This document shows positions 1,462 to 21,110 of a DNA stretch of 21,110 nucleotides, piece after piece. Under the pieces are notes generated by a model. That model was not told where the DNA came from, ran no database searches, and saw only the letters and a list, made by a program, of their open reading frames with translations. The DNA lies in contig NC_057759.1 of NCBI RefSeq assembly GCF_004010195.1, positions 3,820,860 to 3,841,969 on the forward strand, read 5' to 3'. This stretch comes from Chiloscyllium plagiosum. Lineage: Eukaryota. Position numbers and translations under genes: made by a program. The first letter of the stretch is position 1, and every line of letters starts with the position of its first letter.

Positions 1462-1703
1462 TTATAGTCACCACTTGGAAAGGTTCACTTTGTGAAAACA
1501 TGTTCGCAATTAGACACTGGTAAGAGCCTCTAGTTTTACTGCAAACTCTTCCGCTGAAGTCATAAGATTTGAACTTGTAATAGTTTTTCTTATACCAGGA
1601 AGTCTTTATAAATCTGTTGTTGCACTGATACTTCAGAGTGAACCATTCTCCTTCTTGTTGACACCATCCCTGGGATTAGTTATGACGACCTCTGAATATT
1701 GGC
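1462..1703 (-). pseudogene. Ig-superfamily C2-type domain exon, FcR/FCRL/LITR-like, probably frameshifted (gene B)
   Basis: Acceptor tttttgttcttcggcAG|1703 and donor 1462|GTacgt, phase 1-1. Reads GQYSEVVITNPRDGV-(-1 shift near 1660)-QEGEWFTLKYQCNNRFIKTSWYKKNYYKFKSYDFSGRVCSKTRGSYQCLIANMFSQSEPFQVVTI, showing the EG-x-x-x-TL, W-Y-K, G-S-Y-x-C and S-x-P-x-x-V Ig hallmarks. Length 242 nt, one short of 81 codons. Confidence 0.7.
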
Positions 1704-1999
1704 CTGCCGAAGAACAAAAACAATCATTTCTAATGAATGAAACATCAAGCGAAACCTTTCACTCTTCATCGCAGTTCATGCCTTTGATTTTTCTGCCCAA
1801 TGCAAAATATGCAATTGGTCGATTAATCAACGTTTCGCCTCATCAACACCTGTTCACCACCGACAAGGCACAAGTCCGGATTGTGAGGGAATACTCCCCA
1901 CTTGCCTTGATGGTTGCAGCTCCAGTAACAGTAGAGAAAATTAACACTATCTCGGGACAAATCAGCACCCACTTGATTTAAACTATATCGACAAATATC

Positions 2000-2198
2000 T
2001 ACTCCCACTACCATCGATGCTTAGTAGCAAAAGTGTATATCATCTAAAGATGCATTGCAGACATTCGCCAAAGAACCTCAGACAGCACCTTCCAACCCCA
2101 CAACCACTTCCATTTAGAAGGACACGGTATGCAAACACATGGGAACACCACACCCTACAAGTTGCCCTCTGAGCCACTCACCTTCCTTATTCGCAAAT
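2000..2198 (+). mobile_element. 3' region fragment of a decayed non-LTR retrotransposon (LINE), cut off by the gap
   Basis: Aligns by eye with the reverse complement of 20430-20835 (accatcta-aagatgca-tgcag...cagcaccttccaa...). Confidence 0.65.
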
Positions 2199-2751
2199 NN
2201 NNNNNNNNNNNNNNNNNNNNNNNNNNNNNNNNNNNNNNNNNNNNNNNNNNNNNNNNNNNNNNNNNNNNNNNNNNNNNNNNNNNNNNNNNNNNNNNNNNNN
2301 NNNNNNNNNNNNNNNNNNNNNNNNNNNNNNNNNNNNNNNNNNNNNNNNNNNNNNNNNNNNNNNNNNNNNNNNNNNNNNNNNNNNNNNNNNNNNNNNNNNN
2401 NNNNNNNNNNNNNNNNNNNNNNNNNNNNNNNNNNNNNNNNNNNNNNNNNNNNNNNNNNNNNNNNNNNNNNNNNNNNNNNNNNNNNNNNNNNNNNNNNNNN
2501 NNNNNNNNNNNNNNNNNNNNNNNNNNNNNNNNNNNNNNNNNNNNNNNNNNNNNNNNNNNNNNNNNNNNNNNNNNNNNNNNNNNNNNNNNNNNNNNNNNNN
2601 NNNNNNNNNNNNNNNNNNNNNNNNNNNNNNNNNNNNNNNNNNNNNNNNNNNNNNNNNNNNNNNNNNNNNNNNNNNNNNNNNNNNNNNNNNNNNNNNNNNN
2701 NNNNNNNNNNNNNNNNNNNNNNNNNNNNNNNNNNNNNNNNNNNNNNNNNNN
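2199..2751. other. Assembly gap (N run)
   Basis: Continuous Ns. Confidence 1.
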
Positions 2752-2904
2752 TTTTCCGATTTCTAATGTGATACCGGGTGATCCGTCCAGATTTCTTTCA
2801 TTGTTGAGACTTCTTGGCGATGGATACAACTGAATGGCTTGCTCGGACATTTCAAAGGCGAGTTATGGGTCAACCCTGATAAATGGTTACATGACTCGGC
2901 ATGT

Positions 2905-3160
2905 AAACGTTGTTTCTCGCTCTCTGCACACATACTGCCAGATCTACTGAGTTCCTCCAGAACTTTTTCTGTTTATGACGTTAACTCTGTTTGTCTCTCT
3001 CCATAGATTCTACTCGACCTGCTGAGCTTCTCCAGTACTTTCTTTGTTTATAACCTGTAATGTTAATTCTGTTCCTCTCTCATCACCAGCCGCTCCCATC
3101 ACACCGCACCGCCCCCCACAGACCTGCTAAGATGTTGAAGTTAGGCATTTTTGCGTTCCT
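2905..3160 (+). repeat. Three tandem truncated copies (~75-80 bp) of the dispersed repeat that follows the hammerhead-like motif at 17532
   Basis: Units start aaacgtt/acgttaactctg/aatgttaattctg at 2905, 2978 and 3059 and continue ...ctctccacagat...gacctgctgag...ctccag...tgttt, as at 17561-17640. Confidence 0.7.
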
Positions 3161-3449
3161 GTCCTGATTGATACGAGGTGAGAAATTTCAAACAGAATCA
3201 ATCAGTTTCCAAGTGCAGTAATGCCAAGTGGTTGTGGCAAAGGTTACCAACTTCCCAAGGTGGCCGGGATCTATCTAATTAATTATTCAACTGGAGCAAG
3301 AGGGTGCTCTCAACATCAAGGAGATCCATGTTCACAGTAACAGCTGATGCAAAATACAGATTTCTGTCAATTTTGAACGTTTAAGAAGAAAGACGTCTTT
3401 GGAAGATTGTTGTCAGTTATTGATCATGGTAAATTCACTAGTCTTACAA

Positions 3450-3636
3450 GACCATTGGGCTACTTTCTCATGACTGATTACTAGGTGGTGGTTTAACCTG
3501 AGAGTCACCACTTCTCAGGTGAGGGCAGAGGTTGAGAAGGAGAGTCCTCCATGGTAACCTCAGCTACTGTGGGAACTGAACCCATGCTGTTGGCCTTCCA
3601 ATGTATTACAATGCAACTATCCTAACTAGCCACCCC
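3450..3636 (-). mobile_element. Old tRNA-derived SINE fragment
   Basis: Minus strand has a B-box-like gggttcagttccc after a degenerate A box; family not determined. Confidence 0.45.
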
Positions 3637-3739
3637 CATTCACACACACCCTCTGTCTCAGGCAAGAATGGGGGCTGATCTGGAGTAGGGTAATTACAAT
3701 TCAAATAACATTACCCCCACCCCACCCCCAACATCACTG

Positions 3740-4211
3740 GAGACAAAGGGAATGATTTATCCCGGAGATTGAGCAGTTTTGGCTGATACTGTCTGGAGTT
3801 TAGAAGAACGAGAGGAGATCTAACTGAGGGATAGAGGATGCTAAAGTGGAGGTTGACATAGGAGGTGGAGAAAGGATGTTTCCTCATATGTAACAATCTA
3901 GAACGAGAGGTAATCGTTTCAGGAGAAGGGGCTGGGGCAGATTGAAATCAGAGATGGGGAGGAGCGGGTTCGTTCAATGCCGGGAAGCCGTGTATCTGTG
4001 GGAATATTTCTCCACCACAAGAGTGTGTTGGGGACAGTGAATAAACTGAAAAGGGAGACAGAGAAATTTTTAATCAGTGACAACTTAAAGAAAGCAAGGG
4101 CAGGAAAGTGGAGTTGAGGTCGGTATGGGATTCTCCATGATGAAATGGAATGGGAGAGCAGGCTTCCAAGAGTCTGAATGGCCTCCTACTACTAGCTGTT
4201 ATGCATTTATG
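3740..4211 (+). mobile_element. Decayed CR1-type LINE 3' end
   Basis: ctggagtttagaagaacgagaggagatcta (LEFRRxRGDL-like) through the 3' UTR gaatggcctcctact...ttatg. Confidence 0.75.
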
Positions 4212-4316
4212 ACACGCAATGAACAACAGTGGAGAATTTCCACACTGTGTGAGTAACGAGCGACAATGTCAAGAGCAAGTACAATCAATTCTTGACAGTG
4301 CGGATCCCGAGGAACT

Positions 4317-4640
4317 CATAATCCCTACAGTGGAGAAACAAGTCATTGGGCCCATCAAGTCCACACCGACTCTCTGAAGGGCATTCTACCCAAACCAATC
4401 TCTCTACCCCATCCTATAACTCTGCATTTCCCACGGCTAATCCACCTAACCTTCACATGCCTGGGCACAATAGACAATTTCCTATGGCCAGTCCACTGCG
4501 CATCTTTTGATTATGGGAGGAAATCGGAGCATCCGGATATAAACCCACTCAGACAAGGTGAGAATGTGCAAAGTCCACACAGGCCATCACCCAACGTAGG
4601 GATTGAACCCGGGTCCCTGTGAGGCAGGAGTGCGAACCAC
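4317..4640 (-). mobile_element. Older HE1-like SINE
   Basis: Collinear with 7744-8071 (aagtccacaccgac...gaatgtgcaaa-tccacac...gattgaacccgggtc) but more diverged. Confidence 0.8.
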
Positions 4641-4857
4641 TGAGCTCCCGTGTCATCCCCTGTGTCTGATCTGCCATTCAATGGCTGATATGTGGCCTAA
4701 ATCAATAGACCTTTCTTTGGCCCCAACCCGTTAATACCTTAGCAAATGCAAACTCTCTCAGATTGAAAGCTAACATCTAATCCAGTTTCCACTGCGGTTT
4801 GTCGGCGAGATTTCCAATAGTGTGTGTAAATCTTGTAATGTAATATTTTCAACGTAC

Positions 4858-4886
4858 CATGTGCCTCCAGCTATAAAATGTTTCTA
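4858..4886 (-). CDS. Candidate second leader mini-exon (S2) of gene B, 29 nt
   Basis: Strong acceptor ctctctcttttccttcaacAG| and donor ATG|GTacgt. The 3' end reads CTG GAG GCA CAT G (LEAHG, resembling a signal-peptide end), joining GC CAA TAT of the Ig exon. Length is not a multiple of 3. Confidence 0.5.
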
Positions 4887-5352
4887 CTGTTGAAGGAAAA
4901 GAGAGAGAATTCGCCGTTACATCTAAAAAAGTTCTTAGTTATGATTGTAAACTCTGTGAGATGACACACACGCCTATGTGATCATGTATCATTTGCTTAA
5001 AGAGGAATTTGCTGTTTGAAATCTTGAACTGCAGGATTTGGGGCAGGATTTCTGTTTGTCAAAGGGATATGCCGTTTGTTTTTACCCTGAGTTTGTACGT
5101 TTGTGTTAGAAGCACCACAACCCACGAGAAAACGATATGTTGTTTTTCAGGGGATCCACAGACTGATGTCCAAATGGAAAGATGATTCCGGAACGTCAGA
5201 ATGGAGCGGGGAAGCATTTTACAATAGACAATTGAAAAAGAAGTTAGAGAGTTTAACCAAGAGGAGACAGGGATGAGTGCTGGGCACATAGCTTCATTGA
5301 ATGGAGATGTTTCTTCAATCCGTTTACATCCATAGCTCGGGGAAACACACAA

Positions 5353-5650
5353 TAGTCATCCAGCACCAAAAAAAAATCCCTTTGGCCTAACTCATCCATG
5401 CTGACCAAGTTTCCTAAAGTGAAATTGTCCCACTAGCCTGCAGATTGGCCCATATCAGTCAAAATCTTTCTAATCCATCTACTATCAAAATGTATTTTAA
5501 ATGTTTTTATTGCACCCGTCTCTACCACTTCTTCGAGCTGCTTGTTAGATATATGCACCACCACCTGTCTAAAAATGTTACCCTCAGTTACTGATTAAAC
5601 CTTTGCCCTCTCACCCTAAACCTCTGCCCTGTTGTTATGGACAACACTAC
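5353..5650 (-). mobile_element. Decayed CR1/HER1-type LINE 3' end
   Basis: Reverse complement resembles 18460-18728; also similar to 6611-6900. Confidence 0.7.
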
Positions 5651-5944
5651 ATGATAAGCAATGTGCACTTTAATACGAGAGACTCTCACAATACTGGCGA
5701 GGCCCTTTTACCCATCCAAACTGGACCTGCCAACTCTAAATGATGTTCTCAATTAACGGGTGGAGGCGATCAGAACCAGGGTCACAGTCTAATTGTGACA
5801 GGGTAGGACTAATATGGGGAGAAATTGCTTCACCCAGAGAGTTGGGGAGGCTGTGGAATACTCTGACACTGAAAGCAGTCAGGGCCAAAACACTGAAGTT
5901 CCCCCATCCCTGTGTCTCTCTGACCTGTCGCCATCCTTTTCGCT

Positions 5945-6152
5945 CCCTCAACCTTGCTCCATCTCTCTCTCTCTAGCTCTCAATCCTGACCCCATATAAT
6001 CTCTCTCCCTCAATTCTACCCCATCTCTCTCTCACACACATTCAATCCTATCTCCACTTCACCCCTCTCTTAATCCTGCCCCATCACTCTCTTTCTCGCT
6101 CAATCTTGCCCTTTCCTCTCTCTCTATCTGTCTCACCTTACCCGCCTCTCTT
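5945..6152. repeat. CT-rich short degenerate tandem repeat (ctcaatcctgccccatctctct-like)
   Basis: About 7 recurrences of (c)tcaa(t/c)c(c/t)t..ccc separated by (CT)n. Confidence 0.6.
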
Positions 6153-6295
6153 CCAAAAAAAAATGCAATCTAGAACATACAAACCAATTTGTATTATTTT
6201 AGCTCCTCCTAACAGCATGGCACAAGCATCGCATTAATCTGGAGACAAGCTTACACAATATTTCAGTAAAATATAAATCTGTAACAACCACTTAC

Positions 6296-6424
6296 AGAAA
6301 ACAAGCAGGCAAAACGGATTCATATGAAATATCACGTGGAATCCAAAACAAACTCGACCTCTCTCTTTTTGGGAGGGTAACTACTACATGGAGGCACTTA
6401 ATGTCTTCACCGGTCTTCCTGAGG
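6296..6424 (-). CDS. ATG-bearing leader exon (S1) of gene B; coding part 6296-6323 = MNPFCLLVF, phase 1
   Basis: Acceptor atttactttcAG|6424; ATG at 6323; consensus donor T|GTAAGT at 6295. 28 coding nt of hydrophobic sequence, phase compatible with the downstream Ig exon. Confidence 0.6.
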
Positions 6425-6610
6425 CTGAAAGTAAATGGATTTGTGGCTTCACTGTGCAGGGAATGAGGCCACTCGGTCCATCTACCATCGTGGACATTTG
6501 TAATCTGTGATACTTGCAATCTATGCATTACAAATTGATTTCTACCCACCTCCCTTTTTTCTAATTCTTTTTTCCCTTTAACTGCACCAAATAAAGGGAG
6601 TTCAGCAAAC

Positions 6611-7110
6611 ATAGAATCATACAGTCCGGAAATAGGCCCTTTGGCACAATTTATCCATGCTGACTAGACTTCCCAAACAGAACTAGCCCCATTTGCTTGC
6701 GATTGGGCCCTATCCTGTGAAACCTTTCTAATCGAAACCAATACAATCCATTACAAATGCCTTTTAAATGTTGTAATTTTATCTATCTCTATCACTTCCT
6801 CTGGCAGGTCTTTCCAAATATGCAGCACCAGTTGTGAAAAAATGTACGCCCCAGATCCCTTTTAAATCTTTCCCAGCTCACTTTAGACCTATGCCCTCTC
6901 GCTTTGGACTCTCCTCCCGGGGTAAAGACTTTGGTTATTCATCCTATCCATTTCCTTCATGATATTAGAAACATTTATATTCTTACACCCCAGGGTTAGG
7001 AGGACCCAGCCTATCCAGCCTCTACCTACAACTAAAATTCTCCAGTCCTTGTCAATCTTTTCAGCACCATTCCAGTTTAATAACATCTTTCCTGTAGCAC
7101 CTCAGGCATT
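6611..7110 (-). mobile_element. Decayed CR1/HER1-type LINE 3' end with internal deletions
   Basis: Begins atagaatcatacag...ggcccttt (reverse complement of the CR1 tail); collinear with the reverse complement of 18170-18728. Confidence 0.75.
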
Positions 7111-7566
7111 GCTATTTCATTCATTGGAGGATTTCTCACCAGGATCAATCTCTCCAATCGATCTTCAGAGAGTGAATTGCCTCCAGTTTTCCTACCCCTT
7201 TCTCTCCCATCAGTAAGCCAGACAAACACATCTGACCTATGCACGGCCTTTCCAAATGGTACCTGACCCTGAAAGGATTAAGCCCCACGCCTCCCACCCC
7301 AGGAACCTGGCTTCTGCACATTGGTCTGCAGCTCTGAATCATTAGCTATGGGGTCACAAGGAAACCCTAGAGGCGTCTGTGGGGTGACCTTGGATTAGAG
7401 AGAACAGGAAATGATACTAACCACGTAAAGACAAGTCTGATGGACTGCCTGTAACTGAAACACTAAGAAAAAGGAACTACGCATCACTGGTTGACACAGC
7501 AAACTTCTTATCTGATAGAAACACTTACCAGCAAGGCAACAGGTTTGACGTGGAGTCAACACACTC

Positions 7567-7656
7567 AAAATGTTAACTCTGTCTCTCTTTCTCTCTCTCT
7601 CTTTCTCTGCACAGATGCTGCCAGATGGGCTTCTGCAGTATTTTGTGTTTATAACT
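7567..7656 (+). repeat. Truncated copy of the hammerhead-associated dispersed repeat (left flank of the LINE)
   Basis: aaaatgttaactctg...ctctgcacagatgctgccaga...tgtgttt. Confidence 0.7.
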
Positions 7657-10600
7657 GATATAAAATTTGTTTGCTTTAATACAAGGAGTATCAGGAATAA
7701 AAGTGATGAGCTTAGAACATGGATTAGTACCTGGTGCTATGATATTAGATTAGATTACTTACAGTGTGGAAACAGGCCTTTCGGCCCATCAAGTCCACAC
7801 CGACCCGCTGAAGCGTATACCACTCAGACCCATACTCCTACGTTTAACCCTTCACCTAACACTACGGGCAATTTAGCATGGCCAATTCACCTAACCTGCA
7901 CATTTTTGGATTGTGGGAGGAAACCGGAGCACCCGGAGGAAACCCACGCAGCCACGGGAAGAATGTGCAAACTCCACACAGAGAGTCGCCTGAGGCGGGA
8001 GTTGAACCCGGGTCTCTGGCGCTGTGAGGCAGCAGTGCTAACCACTGTGCCACCGTGCCGCCCACTGGTTGATGATGTTGCGGCCATAACAGAGACGTGG
8101 GTTTCTCTAGGGCAGGAATGGTTGCTGGATGTTCCAGGGTTTAGAACATTTAAAAAGAATAGAGAGGGGGTAAAAAGAGAAGGGGGTGTAGCGCTGCTAA
8201 TCGGAGAGGGTATCACAGCTACAAAAGTTACCATTGTCGAGGAGGGTCTGCCTACTGAGTCAGTATGGGTGGAAATTAGGAACAGTAAGGGAGCAGTCAC
8301 CTCATTAGGGGTTTACTACAGGCCTCCCAATAGCAGCAGGGAGGTCGGCAGATTTTGGAAAAGTGTGAATGTAGTAGGGCTGTTGTAATGGGTGACTTTA
8401 ACCTTCCCAATATGGTTTGGAAGAGCTGTTTTTGTAAGGTGTGTTCAGGAAGGTTTCCTAACTCAGTACATTGACAGGCCGACGTGGGGAGAGGCCATTT
8501 TGGATTTGGTGCTCGGCATTGAGCCGGGTCAGGTGTCAGATCTTGCGGTGAGAGAGCATTTTGATGATAGTGACCACAACTGCCTTACATTCTACATATC
8601 TATGGAGAAGGAGAGAAACAGGCAAAATGGGAGAATATTTAACTGGGGATAAGGAAACTATGATGCTATCAGACGTGAATTGGGAAGCATGGACTGGAAG
8701 AAGTTGCTCCATGGAAATGGCACTATAGACATGTGGAGACTGTTTAAGGAACAGTTGTTGAGAGTGATGCATAAATGTGTTCCTCTGAGACAGGTAAGGA
8801 GGGTTAAGATAAAGGAACCTTGGTAGGCGAGAGCGGAGGAGCTTCTCGTGAAAAGAAAGAACGCAGCTTTCATAAGGTGGAGGAAGCAAAGGTCTTGCTC
8901 AGCTCTAGATGATTACAGGCAGGCGAGGAAAGAGCTCAAAAATGGTCTCAGGAGAGCCAGGCGGGGGCACGGAAAAGGCTTGGCAGGAAGAATTAGGGAG
9001 AATCCAAAGTCATTTTACACGTATGTGAGGAATAAGAGAATGATCAAAGAAAGAGTAGGGCCGATCAGGGATAGCATAGGGAACTTGTGTACAGAGTCTG
9101 CGGAGGTGGGGAAAGCCCTAAATGATTTTTTTGCTTCTGTCTTTGCAAAAGAAAAGGACCTTGTAGTGAATGAAACCATTGAGGAGCAGGTAAGCATGCC
9201 AGAACGGATAGAGATTGACGAAGCTGATGTGCTGAAAAATTTGACAAACGTTAAGATTGACAAGTCGCCAAGGGCCAGACCAGACTTGTCCTCGGCTGCT
9301 TTGGGAAGCGAGAAATGTGATTACTTAACCGCTTGCGAAGATCTTTGCATCCTTGCTCTCCACCAGAGTCGTACCTGAGGACTGGAGTGAGGCAAATGTA
9401 ATTCCTCTCTTCAAGAAAGGAAATAGGGAAATCCACGGCAATTACAGACCAGTCAATCTCACGTCTGTCGTCTGCAAGGTGTTAGAAAGGATTTAAGGGA
9501 TAGGATTTATGACCACCTGGAAGAGTATGGCTTGATTAAATGCAGTCAGCACGGCGTTGTGAGGTGCAGGTCATGCATCACGAATTTCTTTGAGTTTTTT
9601 GAGCATGTTACTAGACAAGTTGATGAGGGTCGAGAGGTGCATATGGTGCATATGGACTTCAGCAAGGCATTTGATAAGGGTCCCCATCCTAGGCTCATTC
9701 AGAAGGTTAGGAGGAATGTGATACATGGAAATTTAGCTGTCTGGATACAGAATTGGCTGGTCGACAGAAAACAGCGAGTGTAGTGGAATGAAAGTATTCT
9801 GCTTGCAAGTCAGTGGTGCGTGGTGTTCCACAGGGCTCTGTTCTTGAGCCTCTACTCTTTGTAATTTTTATCAATGACTTGGACGAAGAGATTGAAGGAT
9901 GGTTTAGCAAGTTTGCAGACGATGCAAAGGTTGGAGGTGTCATTGAGAGTATAGAGGACTGTTGTAGGCTGCAGCGTGACATTGACAGGATGCAGAGATG
10001 GGCTGAGAGGTGGCAGATGGAGTTCAACCTGGATAAATGCGAGGTGATGCATTTTGAAAGGTCGAACTTGAAAGTTGAGTACAGGATTAAATATAGGATT
10101 CTTGGCAGTGTGAAGGAACAGTGGGATCTTGGTGTGCAGGTACATAAATCCCATAAAATTGCCACCCAAGTGGACAGAGTTGCTAAGAAAGCATATGGTG
10201 TTTTGACTTTCATTAACAGGGGGATTGAGTTTAAGAGCCGTGAGATTTTGTTGCAGCTCCATAAAACTTTGGTTAGACCACACTTGAAATACTGTGTCCA
10301 GTTCTGGTCGCCCTATTATCAGAAAGATGTGGATGCTTTGGAGAGGGTTCAGAGGAGGTTTGCCAGGATGCTGCCTGGACTGCAGGGCTTATCTTACGAA
10401 GAGAGGTTGACTGATCTCGGACTTTTTTCATTTGAAAAGGAAGGAAGAGAGGGGACCTAATTGAGGTGTACAAGATAATGCAAGACATAGATAGAGTTGA
10501 AAGCCAGAGACGTTTTCCCATGGCAGAAATTGTTAACACAAGGGGTCATAGTTTTAAGCTGTTTGGCGGAAACTATAGAGGGTACGTCAGAGGCGGGTTC

Positions 10601-10816
10601 TTTACGCAGAGAGTGGTGAGAGCATGGAATGCATTGCCAACAGCAGTTGTGGAAGCGAAGTCATTGGGGATATTTAAGAGACTGTTGGACATGCATATGG
10701 TCACAGACATTTGAGGGTTCGTACATTAGGTTTACCTTACATGAGGTTCAATGGTCGGCACAACATCGTGGGCTGAAGGGCCTGCTCTGTGCTGTACTGT
10801 TCTATATTCTATGTTC
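7657..10816 (+). mobile_element. 5'-truncated, inactivated CR1-clade LINE (HER1-like) with nearly complete ORF2 (APE endonuclease + reverse transcriptase)
   Basis: Endonuclease motifs FNTRSIRNK, ITETW, GVYYRPP, LDLVL, SDHN; RT motifs DFSKAFDK, VPQGSVL, KFADD; C-terminal RPHLKYCVQFWSP, AWNALP. Several stops and frameshifts. 3' tail gggctgaagggcct...(TTCTAT-based repeats). Possible 5-bp TSD TAACT at 7652-7656 and 10817-10821. Confidence 0.95.
7744..8071 (-). mobile_element. Young HE1-like V-SINE nested in the LINE endonuclease region
   Basis: Minus strand ggcggcacggtggcacagtggttagcactgctg...gggttcaactccc, (AATCT)n tail; ATGAT duplicated at 7739-7743 and 8072-8076; removing it restores WCYD-VAAITETW. 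Confidence 0.93.
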
Positions 10817-10945
10817 TAACTCTGTCTTCTCTCTCGCTCTCTTTGTCTTTCTCTCTCTCCAGAGATGCCTCCAGACCTTCTGAGTTTACCCAGTGCTCTC
10901 TATGTTGGTTTCAGATCTCCAGAATCCTGCACTGCGTTGGTTTTG
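10817..10945 (+). repeat. Truncated copy of the hammerhead-associated dispersed repeat (right flank of the LINE)
   Basis: taactctg...ctctccagagatgcctccagaccttctgagttt...gtttcagat, matching 17566-17667. Confidence 0.7.
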
Positions 10946-11140
10946 GAACCTGACAAAATATATTCTTTGTATCAGATGCCAATGGCCCCGCTCCTGTTGA
11001 AAGTGTGGCCACGGCTGTTCAATCAAGAGGAATGACGGGGCTGGCACATTTCAACATAAAATGCATCGCTCTATCAGAAAGGAAGCACAGGATTATGTGA
11101 CTACATTTGATGGGAATGGGGTCCATACAAATATAGGACT

Positions 11141-11790
11141 ATGATTAAGCAATTCAGCCCATCGAGTTTTCTCTCCCATTCAAAGAATTTGTGGCTGATC
11201 TGATCATCCTCAAATCCACTTCACCACCTTTCCCTGATAACCCTCGATTCCCTTTCTGATTAAAAATCTCTCTATCTTTGTCTTCAATATGCAGAAAGAC
11301 CAAGCCTTTGCAGCACTCTGTGGTAAAGAATTCCACAGATTCTATCCCCTCTGAAAGAATAAATTCCTCCACCTCTCTGTCTTCAATGGGCGACCCATCC
11401 CAGATTCTGTGATGACACTCCTCTGGTCTCATGTTCTCCCCTACAAGGGGAAACAACCCCTCTCCACATCTCCCCTGCCAAATCACTCTAAGAATCTTCA
11501 ATAAGATCACATCTCATTCTTCTTAACTCCAATGAGGACAGGCCCAACCTACCCAACCTCTCCCTCGTCAGACTGTCCCTCCATACCCGGGATCAGCTAA
11601 GTAAACTCTCTCTGGACTGCCTCCATTCCCAGTCTATCTTTCAAAAAAGGATCCCCAAAACTATTCACAGTCTCCAAGCTGTGGTATGACCTGTGCCTGG
11701 TATAGTGTTTAAGTAAAACGTCCGAACTTTTATCCACATTCCCTTTGAAATAAAAGTTGTTTCCTTGCCCTATGACCTGCTGAACTTTGA
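11141..11790 (-). mobile_element. Decayed CR1-type LINE 3' portion
   Basis: Minus strand encodes ...MEAVQREFT... (LExVQRRFT-like); the 3' UTR resembles 3740-4211. Confidence 0.75.
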
Positions 11791-12482
11791 TTTGCTTGTT
11801 ATTCACAATCAATAACTTCCTGATCCCTCGGATAAGGAAATTATCCAAGGGAATGTGTTTCAACTTTGTTAGAAGTTGCTTCAGCCTCTGGAATCCAAGC
11901 AACACAAGAATCGTAAGAATTAGTTTTCTTAACTGATTGAGGACTTCAAAGAATCGGTGTACCTTTGCAAAGTGCAGTTGGTGTTTCTGAATGTGTTGCT
12001 CATATACCACAACATCAGACAGCGTTGCAGAGTGTGACGGTATGATTTGAGATCTCCAGAGGGCAGATCTTTTGCTAATCCTATCCAGTGGGCGATATTT
12101 TCTCCCTGAGGAACAAGATAATCTCGTTCCCGCCCCTCTGTAAAATCAGCATTCACCACAAATCTGCATTAGCTGTCCCCTCTTTTTGTCCCTAATCTGT
12201 CCCTGATTCGATTTAATTCTCTTTTTCTATTTATGTTTAAAGCAAACATTTGCTCTTCCCCTTTCTTTTGACTTCTTCAAAAATGCTAATCGGTTCATTA
12301 CACTTTCTTTGCAAATTATCCATATGGCTATTACTTTAGCACTCTGTTTTGTGTACTTGGGCGGTTTAACTGTTGGCTGAACAGAAAGTCAATTTTTTTA
12401 CAGAATTCGGAGGTTTCTGCTCATTCCAGTCATTGTATCTTCAGCTGGCTTGTTTCTGATATAAGGCACGGATGAATAGGAC

Positions 12483-15400
12483 ATGTGTGAGAGAGGGTGT
12501 GCGAGGAAGAGTGGAATAAAGTGAGAAAAAGCACAGACGTCTGAGAAAGCGTGTGAGTGTGCGTGAGGGACAGAATGTGTGTGAGAGAGTAAGCATGCTA
12601 AAGAATGTGTCTGTGAGAGAGTCTGTGAGACAGAGTGTGTGAGAGAGAGACAGTTTGTCTGTGTGAGAGTGTGTGCCTGAGACAGAAAGACAGAGAAATT
12701 TGATAAGAGTAAATATGCGTGTGTGTATGCGTGTGAGGGTGAGAAGGAGATGTGGCTGACAATAACGTTTGGGTGCCAGAGTGTTTGTGTGTGTGTGTGT
12801 ATGAGAGAGAAAGAGAGAGAGAAAGACAGTATGTGTATGTGTGAGAGTGTGTGCGTGACAGAGAGAAACTGTTTGTGTGAGACAGAGTGAGTGAGAAGGT
12901 ACTTGTGTGAGAGTGTGCGTGTGACAGACTGTGTGTGAGAAAGAGCGCTTGTGTGCATGTGGGTGTGAAACACTGCATGAGACAGATTGTGTGTGAGAGA
13001 GAGATTGTGTGTGTGTGTGTGGTGCCTGAGGGAGAGGGAGAGTGCGTGACATGGTGTGTGTGTGTGTGAGAGAGAAAGATAGTTTGTGTATGCGTGGGAG
13101 TGTGAGCATGACAGAGAGAGAAATAAACTGTGTGTGAGAGAGCATGCGAGAGTATGTGTGTGTATGTGTGCGTGACATGGTGTGTGTCTATGTGTCTGAG
13201 AAAGAAAGTATGTGTGACACTGTGTGTGTGACAGTCTCTCTGTGTGTATGTGTGTGTGTGAGAGAGCGAGAGAGTGTGTTTGAAACATTGTGAGAACGGG
13301 ATTGCCTGTGAGAGAGTGTGAGAGAGAGAAAACGTGTGTGTGAGACTGTATGTGTGTGTGTGAGAGAGAAAAAGATAGTGTGTCTATATATGAGAGTGTG
13401 TGCGTGACAGAGAGAGGGAAACTATGTGTGTGAGAGAGTATGTGTGTGTACGTGTGTGAGAGAGAGCATGTGTGTGTGTGAGAGAGAATCTATGTGACAC
13501 ACTGTGTGTGAGAGAGAGCGCCTGTGTGCTGGTGGGTGTGACAGAGTGTATCAGACAAAGTGCGCGTGTGAGAGAATATGTGTGTGACACTGTACGTGTG
13601 TGTGTGTGTGCGCGCGCGTGTGAGAGAGAGAGAGAGAAATTGAGAGTCATTGTGTGTGGGTGTGCTACTTATCTATGAGGCTTTATGTGTGAGAGAGTGT
13701 GTTTGAGAAATTGTGAGAACGAGATTGTTTGTGAGAGAGTGTGTGCGAGAGAGAGCGTGTGTGTGAGACTGTATTTGAGAGAGTGTATGTCTGAGCGTGT
13801 GTGCGTGAGAGAAAGAGAGACCGTGTGTGTGACAATGTGTGTGGGTGAGAGAAAGACATTGTGGGTGTGTGAGAAACTTACGTGTGAGACTTTATGTGTG
13901 AGAGAGTGTGTTTGAAACATTGTGTGAACGGGATTGTTTGTGAGAGAATGCGTGTGTGCGAGAGTGTGTGCGTGAGAGAGAGTGTGTGTGAGAGAGTGTA
14001 TATGTGAATGTGTGCGTATGTTTTAGAGAGAGAGACTGTGGGTCAGAAAGTGTGTGAGACACAGTGTGTGTCTGAGCGTGTGTGTGAGACAGAGTGTGTC
14101 TGTGAGAGAGTGTGTAGAAAGCAAAGAGAGATAGAGTTGATGAGAGTAAGCATGTGTGTGCATGTCAGGATGAGAGGGAAAGAGTGGGAAAGAGGAAAAA
14201 GTGTGTGTGTGAGAGAGAAACAGTCTGTATGTGAAGGATAGCGTGTGTGATAGTGATTGTGTGAGAGAGTGTATGTGACAGTGTGTGTGAGAGAGCGCGA
14301 TTGAGTGTGTGACACTGTGTGTGTGACAGACTGTGTGTGTGTGAGAGAGTGTGAGTGAGACAGTGTGTGTGTCAGTGACACTTTACGTGTGAGACAGAGT
14401 GAGAGAGTGTGTTTGAGACATTGTGTTAACGGGATTGTTTGAGAGAGTGTGTGTCAGAGAGAGAGAGAGAGCGTGTGTGTGAAACAGTGTAGGTGTAAGT
14501 TTCTGTGTGTGAGAGAAAGAAAGACTGTGAGTGTGACATTGTGTGTGTGTATGTGAGGGAGAGAAAGAGAAAGATAGTGTGTGTATATGTGAGAGTGTCT
14601 GCGTGACAGAGAGAGAGAAACTGTGAGAGAGAGAGAGTGTGTGAGAGAGTACATGTGTGTATGCGTGTGAGAGAGCGTGTGTATGTGTGAGAGAGAGTGT
14701 GTGACAGACTGAGTGTGAGAGAGTGCATGTTTGCTTATCGGTGTGAGAGAGTGTATGAGAGAATGTGTGTGTGATACAATACGTGTGGCGCTGCGTATAT
14801 GTGTGAGTGTGTGTGTCTGTGAGAGAGACACAGAGAGTGTATGAGACATTGTGGGTGTGTGAGACTTTATGTGTGAGACAGAGTGACAGAGTGTTTGAGA
14901 CATTGTGTGAACGGGACTGTTTGTGAGAGAGTATGTGTGTGTGAGAGAGTGTGTATGTGAGAGAATGTATGTGTGATTGTGTGTGCATGTGTGTGAGAGA
15001 GAGCGTGCGAGAGACTGTGTGTCTGTGTGAGTGTGTGTGAGACAGACTGCGTCTCTGAGAGATTGTGTGTGAGACAAAGAGAGAGAGTTGCTGAGAGTAA
15101 GTATGTGTGTGTAAACGTGTGGGAGAGAGGAACAAGTGTGTGTGAGAAAGACAGAGACAAAGTTTGCGTGTGAGAGAGAGAGTGCGTGCGAGACAGAGTG
15201 TGTTTGTGTGAGAGAGTGTGCGAGAGTGTGTGAGAGAGAAAGAATGTGTGAGACAGAGTGTGTGTGTGAGAGAGGGAGAGATTATGTGTGAGACAGAATG
15301 TGTGTGTTTAGTTGAGAGAGAGCGTGTGTGTGTATGTGTGAGAGAGAGGGAGTGTGTGTGAGACAGATGTGTGTTTTTTGAGAGAATGTATGTGTGAGAC

Positions 15401-15570
15401 AAAGTGTCTGTGTGTGATAGAGTGAGGGGTGTGAGACTGTGTGTGTGAGAGAGAGAGTTTACAGAGTGTGCTTTTGGTTGAGAGTGTGTGTGTGAAGCAG
15501 TGTGTGTGTGCGTATGTCAGAAAGTGACTGTGCGTGTGTCTGTGTGTATCTGTGAGTGAGAGAGACAGAT
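12483..15570. repeat. ~3.1 kb degenerate (GT)n/(GA)n compound microsatellite with higher-order repeats
   Basis: Continuous tgtgtg/gagaga mosaic; a ~35-bp marker gtgtttga(a/g)acattgtg..aacgggattg recurs 5 times. Confidence 0.95.
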
Positions 15571-15594
15571 TATGAGTATGCGAGAAGTTAGAGA

Positions 15595-15865
15595 CATAGT
15601 GTCAGTGATTTTTACAACATGGAAACAGTTCCTCTGGGTCAAATTGTCAGTGGTGCCCAAAATTTCAACTAGTCCCATGTGCTTGTGTTTGGTCTATATT
15701 CTTCCATACCTATCCCTTTCATGTACAGGTTTAAATGTTTCTGAAATGACAAAACTGCACTCGCTTCCACCACTACCTCCAGCAGCCTGTTCCTGACACT
15801 CACCGCCCTCTGTGTGAAAGAATTCCGCCACTGTACTCTTTCTTATCTCTCCCCTATCACCTTGA
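15595..15865 (-). mobile_element. Decayed CR1-type LINE 3' end
   Basis: Collinear with 5353-5650 and 6611-6900. Confidence 0.65.
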
Positions 15866-15874
15866 AGAAACCCT

Positions 15875-16100
15875 CATCACATTGAAGAAGGATAGATGTT
15901 CACTAATGATGCCAAGGCAATGAACCAAGTGCTGGGGAAATGGGATTAGACAATAGTTAAGTGGTAACTATTTACACGCAGACTCGATGGGCCGATGGGC
16001 CTTTTTCTGTGCTGCAGACTCCCTGCCGCTGGGGCAATTAGGGATGTGGAGATAAACGTTAACCCAGTCAGTGACATACACTTCTCATGATCGAATGTAA
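15875..16100 (+). mobile_element. Adjacent LINE 3'-tail fragments (CR1 tail, then ggggcaattagggat... tail with poly-A)
   Basis: gactcgatgggccgatgggcctttttctgtgctg; second tail matches the reverse-complement ends of 19060-19390 and 20430-20835. Confidence 0.5.
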
Positions 16101-16671
16101 AAAAAAAAAAATCTTTTTTCAACGTGAAGTGAGTTGAGTGAGTTACATTCCCGGGATTGGTAAGGATTTGACCTTTGGAGTGATGGAGATGGGAAAGCAC
16201 TGAAGGAGGACCTTCAGCCCATTGCCCTTGTGCAGGACAGTTTTGATTACCAATTGAATCTTCTGTGATCGATCTCTGCTTAAATCTATCTGGATGAGCT
16301 CGCCCCCCACTGCCCCGACAGTAACCTGCCTGCTGTGAAATATGTGCCCGACAGCCGGGTGAAACTGAACTTTAAAGGCACTGGTGTCATGTGAGGCAGC
16401 TCGGTGTGGGAATGACGGTGAGTAATGTCATCAATGTGCTCCCCAGCCACAGGTTAAGCCGGCAGTGTTGTGGGAGTGTGCACACTAACCAGTCTGTGGT
16501 GTATGGAGAGAGACAACACAAATCAAATATTCTGCCCATCACAGTCACAACGGAATATTGATTCTGTGTAAAGTTACCTCACGTGAACACAACAAATCAT
16601 AGACACATCACAAATAGAAGCAGGAATAGGCCCTACCAACCTGCGCACACCCCCACCCCCCATTCAACAAG

Positions 16672-16735
16672 ATGGAACCCAGGTCTCTGGCATTGTGAGG
16701 CAACAGAGCTAACCACTGAGAGACCGTGTCACCCA
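16672..16735 (-). mobile_element. HE1-like SINE 5' (tRNA head) fragment
   Basis: gaacccaggtctctggcattgtgaggc...ctaaccactg..accgtg matches 8003-8060. Confidence 0.65.
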
Positions 16736-16744
16736 TAAATAAAG

Positions 16745-17520
16745 GATAAAGTGGGGGGGGGGGGGGGCAGAGGAAATAGGAGTGGATAGAGCGGGGCTCA
16801 ACAGAAATGAGATGGGGAAATGGGGGTCGGGAATAGAGTGGGGTAGTGAGGTTCATAGGAAGGTTTATTGAGGGGAAATGGGGAAGGGGAATAGAGTTGG
16901 GGGAGAAAGAGGGGGCATGGGATGGAGAGCGATGGAGTGGGGAGGGGGATCGTTTGTCCCCTTCCCTTTTTTCCCTGCACTCCACCCTAGCACCCTCCTC
17001 TGTTGATCCTGCCTCCACTCTATACCTCTACTGTTACCCTTGGCCCCTACTTTATCCCACTCCCCTGCTGCCCCGTCCCACATTTTTATCTACATCCCCT
17101 GTTTCCCCGACCCATCACTCTATCTCCCCGCCTTGTTTCCCCTGCCAAGCACTCTATCCCCTCTCGTGTTTTATGTGGCNNNNNNNNNNNNNNNNNNNNN
17201 NNNNNNNNNNNNNNNNNNNNNNNNNNNNNNNNNNNNNNNNNNNNNNNNNNNNNNNNNNNNNNNNNNNNNNNNNNNTTCCCCGCCCCACTCTATCCCCCTC
17301 CCCTCTTTCTTCTGCCCCTATTCTATCCTCCTCCCGTTTCGCCTACAATCCCCCACTCTATCCTCCTCCCTTGTTTGCCCTGCTCACAAGGTATCCCGCT
17401 CCCCTGTTTCTCGTACCCCCTCGACACAGTGCCACTCTCGTGTTTTCCCTGCCCCCGCTCCAACTCCATCCCAGCTCCTCTCATTTCCTCTCTCTCCAAA
17501 CTCTCCCCATTCTATCTCTC
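16745..17520. repeat. Purine/pyrimidine-asymmetric minisatellite (core CCCCACTCTATCCCC) that switches orientation near 16952; contains a gap at 17180-17275
   Basis: G-rich units g(g/a)atagagtgggg at 16745-16950; C-rich units ccccactctatcc at 16955-17520. Confidence 0.7.
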
Positions 17521-17531
17521 TTACACACAAA

Positions 17532-17573
17532 CAGTTCTGAGGAAGGGTCACTTGGCCTGAAACGTTAACTCTG
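17532..17573 (+). ncRNA. Minimal type I hammerhead-ribozyme-like motif at the head of a dispersed (probably Penelope-like) repeat
   Basis: AGTT (stem I) - CTGAGGA (CUGANGA core, 17537-17543) - extra A - GGGTC/ACTT/GGCCT (stem II with two G.U pairs) - GAAA - palindromic AACGTT - GUU triplet (17564-17566) - AACT (stem I'). Confidence 0.6.
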
Positions 17574-17954
17574 ATTTCTCTCCACAAATGCGACCAAACC
17601 TTCTGAGCTTTTGTAGCAATTGCTGTTTTTGTTTCTGATTTACTGCATTCACAATTCTTTTAGTTTTTCACTCTGTGATAACTGTCTCACATCACATCAA
17701 CATGGTTTCACTAGCTTACATCTACTTAATAAAAAAAGTCCCAATATGTTATGAACTGGAATTTTGTTTATTACTGAATACATAATTAATGTATACAAAA
17801 GCAAAGCCCACCAAGAAATTGCATTTAGAGTAACTCAGAGATAGATCAGACCCATCCCATGTACACCATCCATGAAGGGAAGCTCCCATTGCTTAATAAA
17901 TGCCGCATCCATCATGTTTCCATTGTGTTTTCCATCTCAACACAGAGTGCGGAG

Positions 17955-18728
17955 TGGGGAAGGGGCTGCGAAAGAGGATGCAGAGATGCTTCCGTGTGCT
18001 TTGGACAAATTGAGTGAGTGGGAAAACGCAAGACAGAAGCAGTTTAATATGGGTCAACATTTGGTTAGCCAATGTGGGAGCGAGATCACGAAGGTGGATT
18101 ATTATCCGAATGGCGATGGAAAAATGAATTGAGGACTGAAGTTGGGTTGCCAATTTATGGCTGTACAAGACATTGACAAGGCCATGTTTGGATTATTGCA
18201 TGGAATTCTGGTCGCCCTGCTGTAGGAAGGATGTTATTAAATTGGAAAAAGTGCAGGAAAGATCTACAAGAATGTTACCAAGGCTGGTGGGTTTTAATAA
18301 TAAGGAGAGGGTGGATAGGCTGAGGCGATTTTTTTCCCTGGAGGGTCTGTGGTTGAGGGGTGGGCCCTATAGAGGTTTATAAAATCATAAGGGGCATAGA
18401 TAAGGTGAATAGACAAGATTTTTAATCGCAGGTTAGGAGAGTCCAAATGAGGGCATAGTTTTTAGATGACAGTGGAGAGATTTAAAAGAGACATGAGGGG
18501 CAATTTTTCACGCAGTGGGTGGTGCATATATGGATCAAGCTGCCACAGGGGATATTGGAGGCCGGTACAGTTACAACATTTTGAAGGCATTTGGACAGGC
18601 CCATGGATAGAAAAGGTGAGAGAGACATGGGTCAAATGGGGCTGGTTCTGTTTAGGAAGCCTGGACAGCATGACTGAGTTGGGCTGAAGGATCTGTTTCC
18701 GTGCTGTATGGCTCTATGACTCTATGAT
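17955..18728 (+). mobile_element. Decayed CR1/HER1-type LINE 3' portion
   Basis: RPCLDYCMEFWSP...LEKVQERSTRMLP; tail gggctgaagg...(CTCTATGA) repeats. Confidence 0.85.
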
Positions 18729-19059
18729 TACAGACACATGCTGTCCTTGCCAGCAATGCTCTACATCCTTTCCCTGAATGAGGGACCACGGTGTTTAAAA
18801 ACCGATAACTCAATCACTGTCCTTGCTCGCTCTAATGCTTGACAATTCATCGACATAATCATGCTGTTTCATTGAAAGACAAATGGCACTTATTGACGAG
18901 AACCTTTCTTGATGGACAGCCGTTATCAGATCTGTACGAGGGCGGTGTTAAAATATTGACATCTTCAACAAAGCCTGTATTTACATCACACCGAGCCCAT
19001 ATGTGGTGCCATGGTAGTGTCCCTAACTCTAGACTGAGATTCCAAATTTTCTTTTATTC

Positions 19060-19390
19060 ATAAGAGGAGGACACCACCGGATAGGTCAGCATTTATTACC
19101 AATCCCTAAAAGCCCACAGGGTAGTTAAGATTCAATCGAATTGCTGTGGGTCTGGTGTCACATGTAGGCTGACCAGGTAAGGAATGGCAGTTTCCTTCCC
19201 TAAAGGACGTGAATGAATCAGATGGGTTTTACTGACAATCGATCATAGGTCACAATCAGCCACTTTAGTCCAGAATTTTGTTGATGTTAAAACCCACCAT
19301 CTGCCATGTAGCATTCATGCGGGTCCCTAGAATATCACAGAGATCTCTGGATTAACAGTCCACCAATAACACCACCAGGCCATCGCACCC
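19060..19390 (-). mobile_element. Old tRNA-derived SINE sharing its 3' tail with the LINE at 20430-20835
   Basis: Minus strand starts gatggcctggtggt... and ends tagggattggtaataaatgctg; a related fragment appears to lie at ~2810-2904. Confidence 0.6.
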
Positions 19391-19834
19391 TTTTCACTAT
19401 TTCCCAACTGTCAGAACCGTCTGACAATTTCTATTCTAAATTGGTCAGAATAGGAGAGATTCCTAATTGCTCATTAAAAGAAGGAGACAGATGATGCATT
19501 CATCCGCTTAAACGTGGACCAAACGCTAAGCTTAATCCTCAGATATGAGAACAAAGAAGAGACAGATATTAAATGTCCAAAGATTCCCAAAAGCCAAAAT
19601 AGCTAGTCAAATACAAAACCCAGTGAGGTCCAGAAGACATTGATGGTCACACTGGCATAAAAACAGCTTCCGCGGAAGAAAATGAGTGGAGTCAAAAGCG
19701 TTGTGAAACACGTTTCCATCATAAAGTTCACAAGATTGTTATCTGTACACAGGAGTTACATTGTACCGCTTCACCAGATGGTGTATAGAATCGAACGAAC
19801 ACCCCTCCCTCCACACAGTCTATCCTCTTGCTTC

Positions 19835-19954
19835 TTATTTGCGTGGAATATTCGCGTAAATGTTTCCATCTGCTCCGTTTCTATCTTGTGAGTGCCCACT
19901 GAGGTTCAGTGTGGCGTATGTGATACAATAATCATCAGGGTCAGTCTTGGCATC
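19835..19954 (-). CDS. Terminal cytoplasmic exon of an ITIM-bearing inhibitory immune receptor (gene A)
   Basis: Acceptor tattattcaactgcAG|19954, phase 0: DAKTDPDDYCITYATLNLSGHSQDRNGADGNIYANIPRK*, TAA at 19837-19835. ITYATL fits the ITIM consensus (I/V/L/S)xYxx(L/V); second motif NIYANI lies near the C-terminus. Confidence 0.8.
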   Translation of the reverse strand, partial: DAKTDPDDYCITYATLNLSGHSQDRNGADGNIYANIPRK

Positions 19955-20194
19955 CTGCAGTTGAATAATATTAGAATGAAAAAGGGTACTGAGTGGGAGC
20001 AGGAAGCTGAAGGGGAGGGAGAGGTCAGTTGGGGTACAGGTGGAACTGGGTATCAGGGGAAAATGAGAATCACCAGCAGGCAGTTCAGGGACTGCGAGTT
20101 AGGAAGCTAGTTTCACAGTGGTAATGTCCCTGCCTCTGAGCTAGGCGGACATGGTTCAAGTCCTACCTGCTCCTATGGTGTGCCATATAATTTA

Positions 20195-20420
20195 TAGAAG
20201 CAGGAATATGACGTTGGACTTGAACAGGAGTTTGGCGATACCATAGCTGGACATTGTGTGCAGTTGTCATCTCTGCACTATTAGAAGGATGTGATACACT
20301 GGAGGGGGTTCAGAGGAGATTCGCGAAGATGTTGCCTGGGATGGAGCATTTCAGTGATGAAGAGAAGCTGGGTAAGCTCGGCTTGTTTTCTTTGGACGAG
20401 AGAAAGCAGAGGGGGTTATA
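20195..20420 (+). mobile_element. Decayed CR1-type ORF2 C-terminal fragment
   Basis: Similar to 10240-10460 (ctggagggggttcagaggagattcgcgaagatgttgcctggg). Confidence 0.75.
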
Positions 20421-20429
20421 AATGTGTTT

Positions 20430-20835
20430 TCCATTCATTTACAGGACATCGGCATGTCTAGCAGAGCCCAGCATTTGTTGTCCTGTCTCTAGTTCCTCGA
20501 CTGAGAATGTGACGGTGAGCTATCTTCCTGAGCCACTGTAGTCCCCCATGCTGTAGATAGACTCAACATTCACTTCGGGAGGGAGTTCTAGCATTATGAC
20601 CCGGCGACACTGAAGGAATGGCTGATATTTTTCCAGAGAGTGCTGAGTGGTTCAGAAGGGAACCTGCAAGGGATGGTGATCCCATCTGCTGCCCTTGTCC
20701 TTCGACCTTGAAGTGGTTGTGGATTTGGAAGGTGCTGTTTGAGGATCTTTGGTGACTTTCTACAGTGCATCTTATAGATGGTACACACTGCTGCTACCAA
20801 TTGGGTGCAAATGACAATGGACTGACAACGATTTA
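20430..20835 (-). mobile_element. Decayed LINE 3' end (same family as 2000-2198)
   Basis: Minus ORF remnant VAAVCTIYKMHC...LKQHLPNPQPL; tail ending gaatggaaaa. Confidence 0.7.
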
Positions 20836-20902
20836 GCGTCAAGATCAGTGATGCTTTGATCATGTACAAGAAGTAACTGGAAAAAACAATATTGAAACCG
20901 AC

Positions 20903-20950
20903 TTGTTCCTGGGCGTTGTAAATGGAGTGAGAAGCACTGATTGATCTACC
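20903..20950 (-). CDS. Candidate 48-nt penultimate cytoplasmic exon of gene A (GRSISASHSIYNAQEQ)
   Basis: Acceptor gcgttctcaatAG|, donor CAA|GTcggt; phase 0-0 and in frame with the ITIM exon; lies in an apparently non-repeat island between LINE fragments. Donor is weak. Confidence 0.35.
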
Positions 20951-20984
20951 CTATTGAGAACGCATTGCTATTTATTTTCTGCTG

Positions 20985-21110
20985 TGTTTAAAGTTAGACA
21001 CAAAGCTAGGAGGAAGGGGAAGCAGAGAAGGAGACTTCAGAGATGCTTCATAGACGTGTTGAATGAGTACGCCAATGTAAGACAGATGCAATTTAGTGTG
21101 GATTATTCAG
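20985..21110 (+). mobile_element. Decayed CR1-type RT fragment running off the window
   Basis: Resembles 9905-10040 (KFADDTK...LQRDIDRLxEWA..WQMQF remnant). Confidence 0.55.

Follow-up and report, generated by a model that had tools for sequence, protein, structure and literature searches.

Do sharks possess receptors of the Fc receptor-like (FCRL) lineage? The question is raised by a 21,110-nucleotide stretch of the bamboo shark Chiloscyllium plagiosum (contig NC_057759.1, forward-strand positions 3,820,860 to 3,841,969), referred to here in its full length as the window. Its minus strand carries the last coding exon of one receptor gene, gene A, which encodes an immunoreceptor tyrosine-based inhibitory motif (ITIM), followed by the leader exons and the first immunoglobulin (Ig) exon of a second one, gene B. 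According to Akula et al. 2014 (PMC4016189), no FcRL was found in sharks and FCRL genes are lacking in cartilaginous fish, and a review of June 2026 (PMC13337447) repeats the latter statement and treats Fc-dependent functions in sharks as an open question. Our reading, to which we give a probability of about 0.62, is that the last exon of gene A and the first three exons of gene B, frameshifted, stand head-to-tail in the window as parts of two genes of one family, and that this family likely represents the FcR/FCRL lineage in sharks, with intact members that are likely inhibitory receptors of B cells.

A preliminary description of the window had proposed that A and B are related neighbours, and their paralogy, which it could not demonstrate, is upheld by shared domain clades, by the likeness of the tails and by a shared chromosome in the zebra shark. 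Relatives of the two genes, which we call A-type and B-type proteins, were compared in a tree of 97 domains and 81 columns, whose bootstrap was not fully settled and which agrees with an earlier domain comparison. The gene B domain fell within the clade of B-type first domains (support 100/99), whose sister is the first domain of the A type (100/98); the two types also united in their second (100/98), penultimate (99/97) and last (99/96) domains. The tail of the B type matches exon A (44%, E 1e-5). Zebra-shark proteins of both types are recorded on a contig of one size (15,641,076). In each assembly the members are assigned to contigs of a single length, with at least six accession runs in C. 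plagiosum and many in the zebra shark, both types together. Such placement fits a tandem cluster and gives no gene order. The data thus support a single multigene family of shark Ig receptors that bear ITIM tails, with A and B as adjacent members in head-to-tail order.

The same family emerged from searches with either exon. A full HMMER scan with the open part of Ig exon B (71 residues) returned seven matches, of which the top three come from sharks: a zebra-shark protein named FCRL6, which was the best (E 2.6e-10), and two bamboo-shark models. Of the remaining four, one was a CD22-like protein of a catfish and three were weak matches to unrelated proteins. For the same 71 residues Pfam, the PDB sequence search and the Atlas gave nothing useful, a word-index search for longer proteins containing exon B passed neither of its two candidates, and an Rfam scan had no matches. 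With exon A, four of ten candidates passed, all from Chiloscyllium, 75-78% identical and named FCRL5-like, FCRL2-like or hypothetical; for Chiloscyllium proteins carrying FCRL- or PECAM-like names at NCBI, the identity between their tails and exon A is 67-79%. A profile search gathered 55 proteins at E 1e-20, including 27 members of the shark family, whose sources are five carpet-shark species plus the basking shark; it missed the B-type seeds, so that the census is incomplete and the absence of catshark, ray and chimaera from it is uninformative. The preliminary description had considered the family hidden, which does not hold, as automatically named members are numerous in RefSeq and come from six shark species. 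Their first domain is short, with 35-39 residues between the cysteines.

As to lineage, the comparisons place the window genes, probably, in the broadly defined FcR/FCRL lineage and not in the mammalian FCRL1-6 group. The best matches outside sharks were FCRL3-like proteins of turtle and gar (241, 230 and 204 bits), whereas the best PECAM1 reached 167 bits and the best protein named CD22 reached 132. When 41 shark domains were assigned by best score to reference domains of FCRL (17), PECAM1 (19, with only three or four domains cut per protein), CD22 (14) and shark CEACAM (6), FCRL took 26, PECAM1 eight, CD22 seven and CEACAM none. In the tree, a gar FCRL domain groups with the second domains of the sharks (99/96), and turtle and gar domains group with a further A-type domain (86/92); no grouping of shark domains with a PECAM1 domain is supported. 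Two relatives, P0006 and P0003, match Fc-gamma-RI colinearly (64 and 79 bits), and bird PECAM1 gave no such match at E 1e-8. A profile built from 13 shark tails scored the tails of three FCRL3-like proteins at 10-18 bits, of seven CD22-type proteins at 5-9 and of six PECAM1 proteins at -0.3 to 4.7, four non-shark proteins having been dropped for short or missing tails. The terminal YANI of exon A aligns with the terminal YENV of the turtle and gar FCRL3-like proteins, and the five best Atlas clusters are FCRL-named. Gene B also has the signal peptide split over two exons that PMC2413239 and PMC7940838 describe for the FcR/FCRL lineage.

Membership in the CD22/Siglec/CEACAM group is not supported, since the first domain is short and not of the V-set type and shark CEACAM was the best match of no domain; a search for Ig_CD22 found no match in six shark proteins. 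An AlphaFold model of a B-type relative, built on a four-row alignment, had a predicted local distance difference test score of 39 and was unusable. In the second domain of the B-type relatives P0006-P0008 a Trp is kept at the place aligned with a Trp of the second domain of Fc-gamma-RI that is part of the Fc contact; its partner Trp is not kept.

Published expression data bear on the cell type. PMC11372145 reports fcgr1a-like, fcrl3 and fcrl5 to be high in bamboo-shark B cells, and its supplement lists as markers LOC122544513 (PECAM-like X5; 48% of B cells vs 3%) and LOC122544517 (HSPG-like X3; 43% vs 4%), with histones among the nearby gene IDs and CDC42SE1, APH1A, RPS27, MCL1, SHE and PRUNE1 higher up. 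Five consecutive accession runs of our family, the first a PECAM-like and the last an HSPG-like gene named as in that table, fit the IDs LOC122544513-517, the tie being one of name and spacing, not of accession. CDC42SE1 and the five genes named with it are 1q21 genes in human, and they hint at a 1q21-like neighbourhood. Another nearby ID in the same supplement, LOC122544480 ('IGSF1-like'), is a strong marker of bamboo-shark myeloid cells (40% vs 2%) and is a candidate LRC-type (leukocyte receptor complex) receptor, a kind likewise said to be absent from sharks.

Several observations weigh against our reading. Fifteen of the 41 shark domains are best against PECAM1 or CD22. The phylogeny that had been proposed as a check joined A and B and gave the two clades with FCRL domains, and it left most deep forks open and drew the gene B domain type, on a long branch, to the CD22/CEACAM side (88/86); by score this type is as close to CD22 (47) as to FCRL (48). 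Atlas ranks 6, 7, 9 and 10 are PECAM1 clusters at 0.96-0.97. Bird PECAM1 also matches human FCRL5 first, with 143 bits, and after this control a best match to human FCRL5 was dropped as proof of FCRL identity; turtle FCRL3 scores 536 bits against human FCRL5 and the shark proteins 143-237. The second leader exon of 29 nucleotides departs from the 21-bp rule (PMC7940838) for mammalian FCRL1-6 in the strict sense. Gene IDs, only loosely positional, are the sole synteny basis of the 1q21-like neighbourhood, and in the supplement of PMC11372145 the IDs immediately under those of the family are assigned to another group of genes (GNB2, MEPCE, TFR2). Finally, the window shows a single exon of gene A, the remainder lying upstream of it.

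PECAM1 is a close rival, and one alternative, which we consider unlikely, is that the family is not FCRL proper but expanded in sharks out of the PECAM1 side or out of a common ancestor of FCRL and PECAM1, and reached its ITIM-bearing form independently. Many members are named PECAM-like by NCBI, the eight domains best against PECAM1 are mostly membrane-proximal, PECAM1 itself turns first to FCRL5 and stands just under the FCRL clusters in the Atlas, and a relationship between FCRL5 and PECAM1 is proposed in PMC7916592. However, the two supported clades with FCRL domains have no PECAM1 counterpart, the tail resembles those of the turtle and gar FCRL3-like proteins and not that of PECAM1, the PDB matches listed for three shark proteins include no PECAM1 chains, and the bamboo shark has two other PECAM-like genes in a distant gene-ID range. 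Orthology to PECAM1 proper is not supported by its share of domains (with three or four domains cut per PECAM1 protein), by the clades or by its tail scores.

Turning to gene A, its last exon had been described as ITIM-encoding, which is true of one canonical motif, ITYATL; the second tyrosine motif, YANI, is not canonical. The ITIM tyrosine is kept in 11 of 11 A-type relatives shown. The exon shares 31 of 39 residues with P0002 and P0003, and two hexamers downstream of its stop are likely, from their sequence, to be its poly(A) signals. A penultimate exon was sought among the 53 GT sites in 19955-21110 and none was found, the best score (11) being below background. It is conceivable, though unlikely, that gene A is likewise a dead copy and that the window is a graveyard on the margin of the cluster: a single exon can be seen, its best match in the protein collection does not exceed 79%, its acceptor tract is weak (pyrimidine share 0.57) and the adjoining gene B is a pseudogene. 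Against this, the frame, the acceptor, the stop position and both tyrosine motifs are intact, the eight differences from P0002 and P0003 miss the ITIM and both tyrosines, and the two AATAAA sites lie downstream of the stop.

Relatives of full length combine about 3-8 Ig domains with an uncharged membrane segment and with 2-4 ITIMs, and the tyrosine motifs of a type I membrane protein are seen in the ITIM of exon A, in those of the relatives and in the tail profile. By analogy with them, the product of an intact gene A would be a type I membrane protein with some 3-8 Ig domains, an uncharged membrane segment and about three ITIMs followed by the terminal YxN. In FCRL biology, co-engagement with the B-cell receptor leads Src kinases to phosphorylate the ITIMs, and SHP-1 and SHP-2 then bind and damp signalling. 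The gene A product may act in the same manner: once drawn to the B-cell receptor its ITIMs would be phosphorylated by Src kinases and could recruit SHP-1/SHP-2, so that the B-cell signal would be damped, and the terminal YxN would suit Grb2. The Fc of shark immunoglobulin is only a candidate ligand.

Membrane segments were called for 57 of 79 family proteins (isoforms included, in a census that is incomplete), and there is no true Arg or Lys in the core; the exceptions are one Glu in the core of a partial whale-shark member and one false call. The notion of a paired-receptor family, put forward in the preliminary description, is therefore not sustained, and the family looks inhibitory because no true Arg or Lys occurs among these calls. 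Twenty-two of the 79 proteins are without a membrane call, and in the P0034 cluster of the zebra shark many models lack a membrane segment or have very short tails; such models are candidates for secreted forms, partial models or further pseudogenes. The preliminary description had also linked the genes to several receptor types at once. The affinity to FcR/FCRL receptors stands, these being the most similar, and that to LITR or LRC-type receptors is unsupported, since KIR and Fc-alpha-RI chains reach only 22-26 bits, where Fc-gamma-RI reaches 61-64 and FCRL5 168. It is accordingly very improbable that the genes belong to a paired activating/inhibitory family of the LRC or LITR type. A split leader, short Ig domains, an ITIM tail and a tandem array would fit such a family in general, as would the Glu of the whale-shark member, but none of the 55 profile matches is named LILR, KIR or LITR (LITR was not compared directly), and the membrane cores lack Arg and Lys.

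In gene B the exon coordinates given previously hold, as do the one of gene A, the minus strand, the head-to-tail order and the AG/GT splice ends. When the 1059 GT sites of the minus strand are ranked by their similarity to the leader of the zebra-shark relative P0006, the first leader exon, S1, comes first (score 23; next 13), and it is the sole hydrophobic frame of two minus-strand ATG-to-GTRAG phase-1 frames. The mini-exon S2 has the best splice signals of three candidates between leader and Ig exon, and ranks third of 1059 for likeness to the second leader part of P0006. The Ig exon matches shark Ig domains (E 5e-19) and is 45-48% identical to B-type first domains. It had been described as a short phase 1-1 exon, and an open exon of that kind is refuted by its length, not a multiple of three, and by the closing of all three frames, which stop at codons 8, 9 and 23 from the acceptor. 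In tblastn searches with B-type relatives, one frame matches up to about 1654 and another beyond; the exon is one base short, with a frameshift near 1654, and Tyr stands at the position of the first cysteine. The S2 frame that matches the relative contains a TAG at 4871-4873. Gene B is thus a pseudogene, a fact that the preliminary description overlooked.

The frameshift is repeated in another sample: run X5 yielded a contig that agrees with the window over 1300-1688 without a single difference or gap, which rules out an assembly error as its source. At 45.8, the depth of this contig is roughly double the 10-28 seen for most of the other colinear contigs; the broken Ig exon may be present in two near-identical copies, depth being a poor copy count. 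Each of the three DNA runs also contains contigs that carry an additional base behind 1654, and we read them as paralogues. Long colinear contigs of organisms B (depth 12.9) and C (8.88), 6-8% diverged, lie outside the extra-base set by their listed depths, and both alter the donor G at 1461. From this depth arithmetic on a table of listed rows, with 53 further indel rows outside it, the Ig-exon frameshift is likely common to two related species. Gene B is likely an unprocessed pseudogene produced by birth-and-death turnover of the cluster and dead before the three sampled species split. Very improbable, and the least likely of the alternatives, is a gene B that still codes, S1 and S2 together ending in phase 0 and a cryptic acceptor at 1669 reopening the frame to the donor to give an Ig domain without its first strand: an AG before 1669 does leave a 208-nucleotide exon, open in phase 0 and ending in phase 1, with a cysteine two residues past the lost one, but this acceptor is weak (pyrimidine share 0.57 vs 0.79), two more downstream AGs are equally open, so that its occurrence is near chance, the resulting leader would be a poor one, no donor GT is present in the colinear contigs from organisms B and C, and about 2% of one single-cell poly(A) run (RNA run X21), searched over a stretch that excluded gene A, showed no read on the exons of gene B, a weak negative.

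Table 1. Features of genes A and B in the window (positions from its first nucleotide).
Feature	Position	Strand	Remarks
Gene A, last coding exon	19835-19954	-	AG acceptor, phase 0, 39 open codons and TAA
Gene A, canonical ITIM	19907-19924	-	ITYATL
Gene A, terminal YxN[IV] tyrosine motif	19847-19858	-	YANI; not a canonical ITIM
Two AATAAA hexamers	19053-19097	-	738 and 777 nt past the gene A stop; putative poly(A) signals
Gene A 3' untranslated region and intergenic spacer	6324-19834	.	13.5 kb; largely long and short interspersed elements (LINE, SINE) and low-complexity DNA
Gene B, leader exon S1	6296-6323	-	28 coding nt, ATG to GTAAGT donor, phase 1
Gene B, leader mini-exon S2	4858-4886	-	29 nt; AG/GT ends; breaks the frame
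Gene B, first Ig exon	1462-1703	-	242 nt; short N-terminal domain type of sharks

Further exons of the family were sought in the window and none was detected. The spacer contains a decayed non-LTR (long terminal repeat) retrotransposon in several frames on the plus strand (7549-10714), which is putatively of the CR1/L2 type and two pieces of which match Pfam RVT_1 (E 6.6e-6 and 1.3e-12). It is interrupted by the third of three copies of a SINE-like repeat (605-927, 4326-4657 and 7739-8062), the first and third being 87% alike. About 3 kb of CA/CT low-complexity DNA (12400-15600) also lies between the two genes. A 17-bp minisatellite (12-587 and 987-1145, about 17 and 6 copies in the best arrays) sits in the intron after the Ig exon of gene B. 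Runs of N mark assembly gaps at 2199-2751, inside the intron between S2 and the Ig exon, and at 17179-17275.

The family is already named in RefSeq, and FCRL names are also used in the single-cell paper PMC11372145. Our literature search found no paper devoted to it, subscription journals being mostly outside its coverage and supplements possibly treating it; the supplement to the elephant shark genome paper (PMC3964593) gave no match for the terms searched. The gain is thus a tested family link and not a first sighting, the window itself adding one tail exon and an old pseudogene. The family nevertheless bears on the standing claim that FCRL is absent from sharks, and in a directly testable way. 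If it is a shark FCRL branch, the lineage would be as old as antibodies, and its intact members would be concrete candidates for binding IgM, IgW and IgNAR. A bolder version, which we regard as tentative and rather doubtful, holds that an FcR/FCRL locus was present in the ancestor of jawed vertebrates and that sharks keep a fast-turnover, 1q21-like, ITIM-only FCRL cluster of B cells with a shark-specific N-terminal domain, some members of which bind the Fc of IgM, IgW or IgNAR; were it true, sharks would own the antibody-feedback receptors they are said to be missing.

Among known systems, the closest are the FCRL2/3/5/6 and PECAM-like models of carpet and basking sharks in RefSeq (for example XP_072422997, XP_043539732, XP_059498327 and XP_078390312), which belong to the same family under names that are automatic and mutually inconsistent. 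Exon A is identical to most of the A-type tails at 24-31 of 39 residues, but neither window gene is in the protein collection, gene A having no clear one-to-one match and gene B being broken. With mammalian FCRL1-6 and Fc-gamma-RI the family shares the split leader, the colinear three domains of Fc-gamma-RI, repeated membrane-proximal domains like those of FCRL5, the ITIM tails and, probably, expression in B cells; it differs from FCRL1-6 in the length of S2, in the lack of one-to-one orthology and in that no activating member was found. PECAM1 (CD31) is a single-copy adhesion receptor of six domains. It has related Ig domains, especially near the membrane, and an ITIM tail, whereas the shark family is multigene, varies from 3 to 8 domains and has different tail motifs. 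The XFL genes of Xenopus, compared by their description in PMC2413239, likewise form a large tandem family with variable domain number, gene fragments and pseudogenes, and their split leader follows the 30/21 rule only partly, in some genes; they include activating and inhibitory pairs, of which none was found in the shark family. The FCRL3-like proteins of turtle and gar (P0039, P0040 and P0043) are only 26-27% identical to the shark proteins, which add a short N-terminal domain without a confident counterpart, yet they share the uncharged membrane segment and a last exon laid out like exon A, with a run of acidic residues, a motif resembling an ITIM and, at the end, YxN[IV], which in the comparison with the turtle proteins extends to YxN[IV]P.

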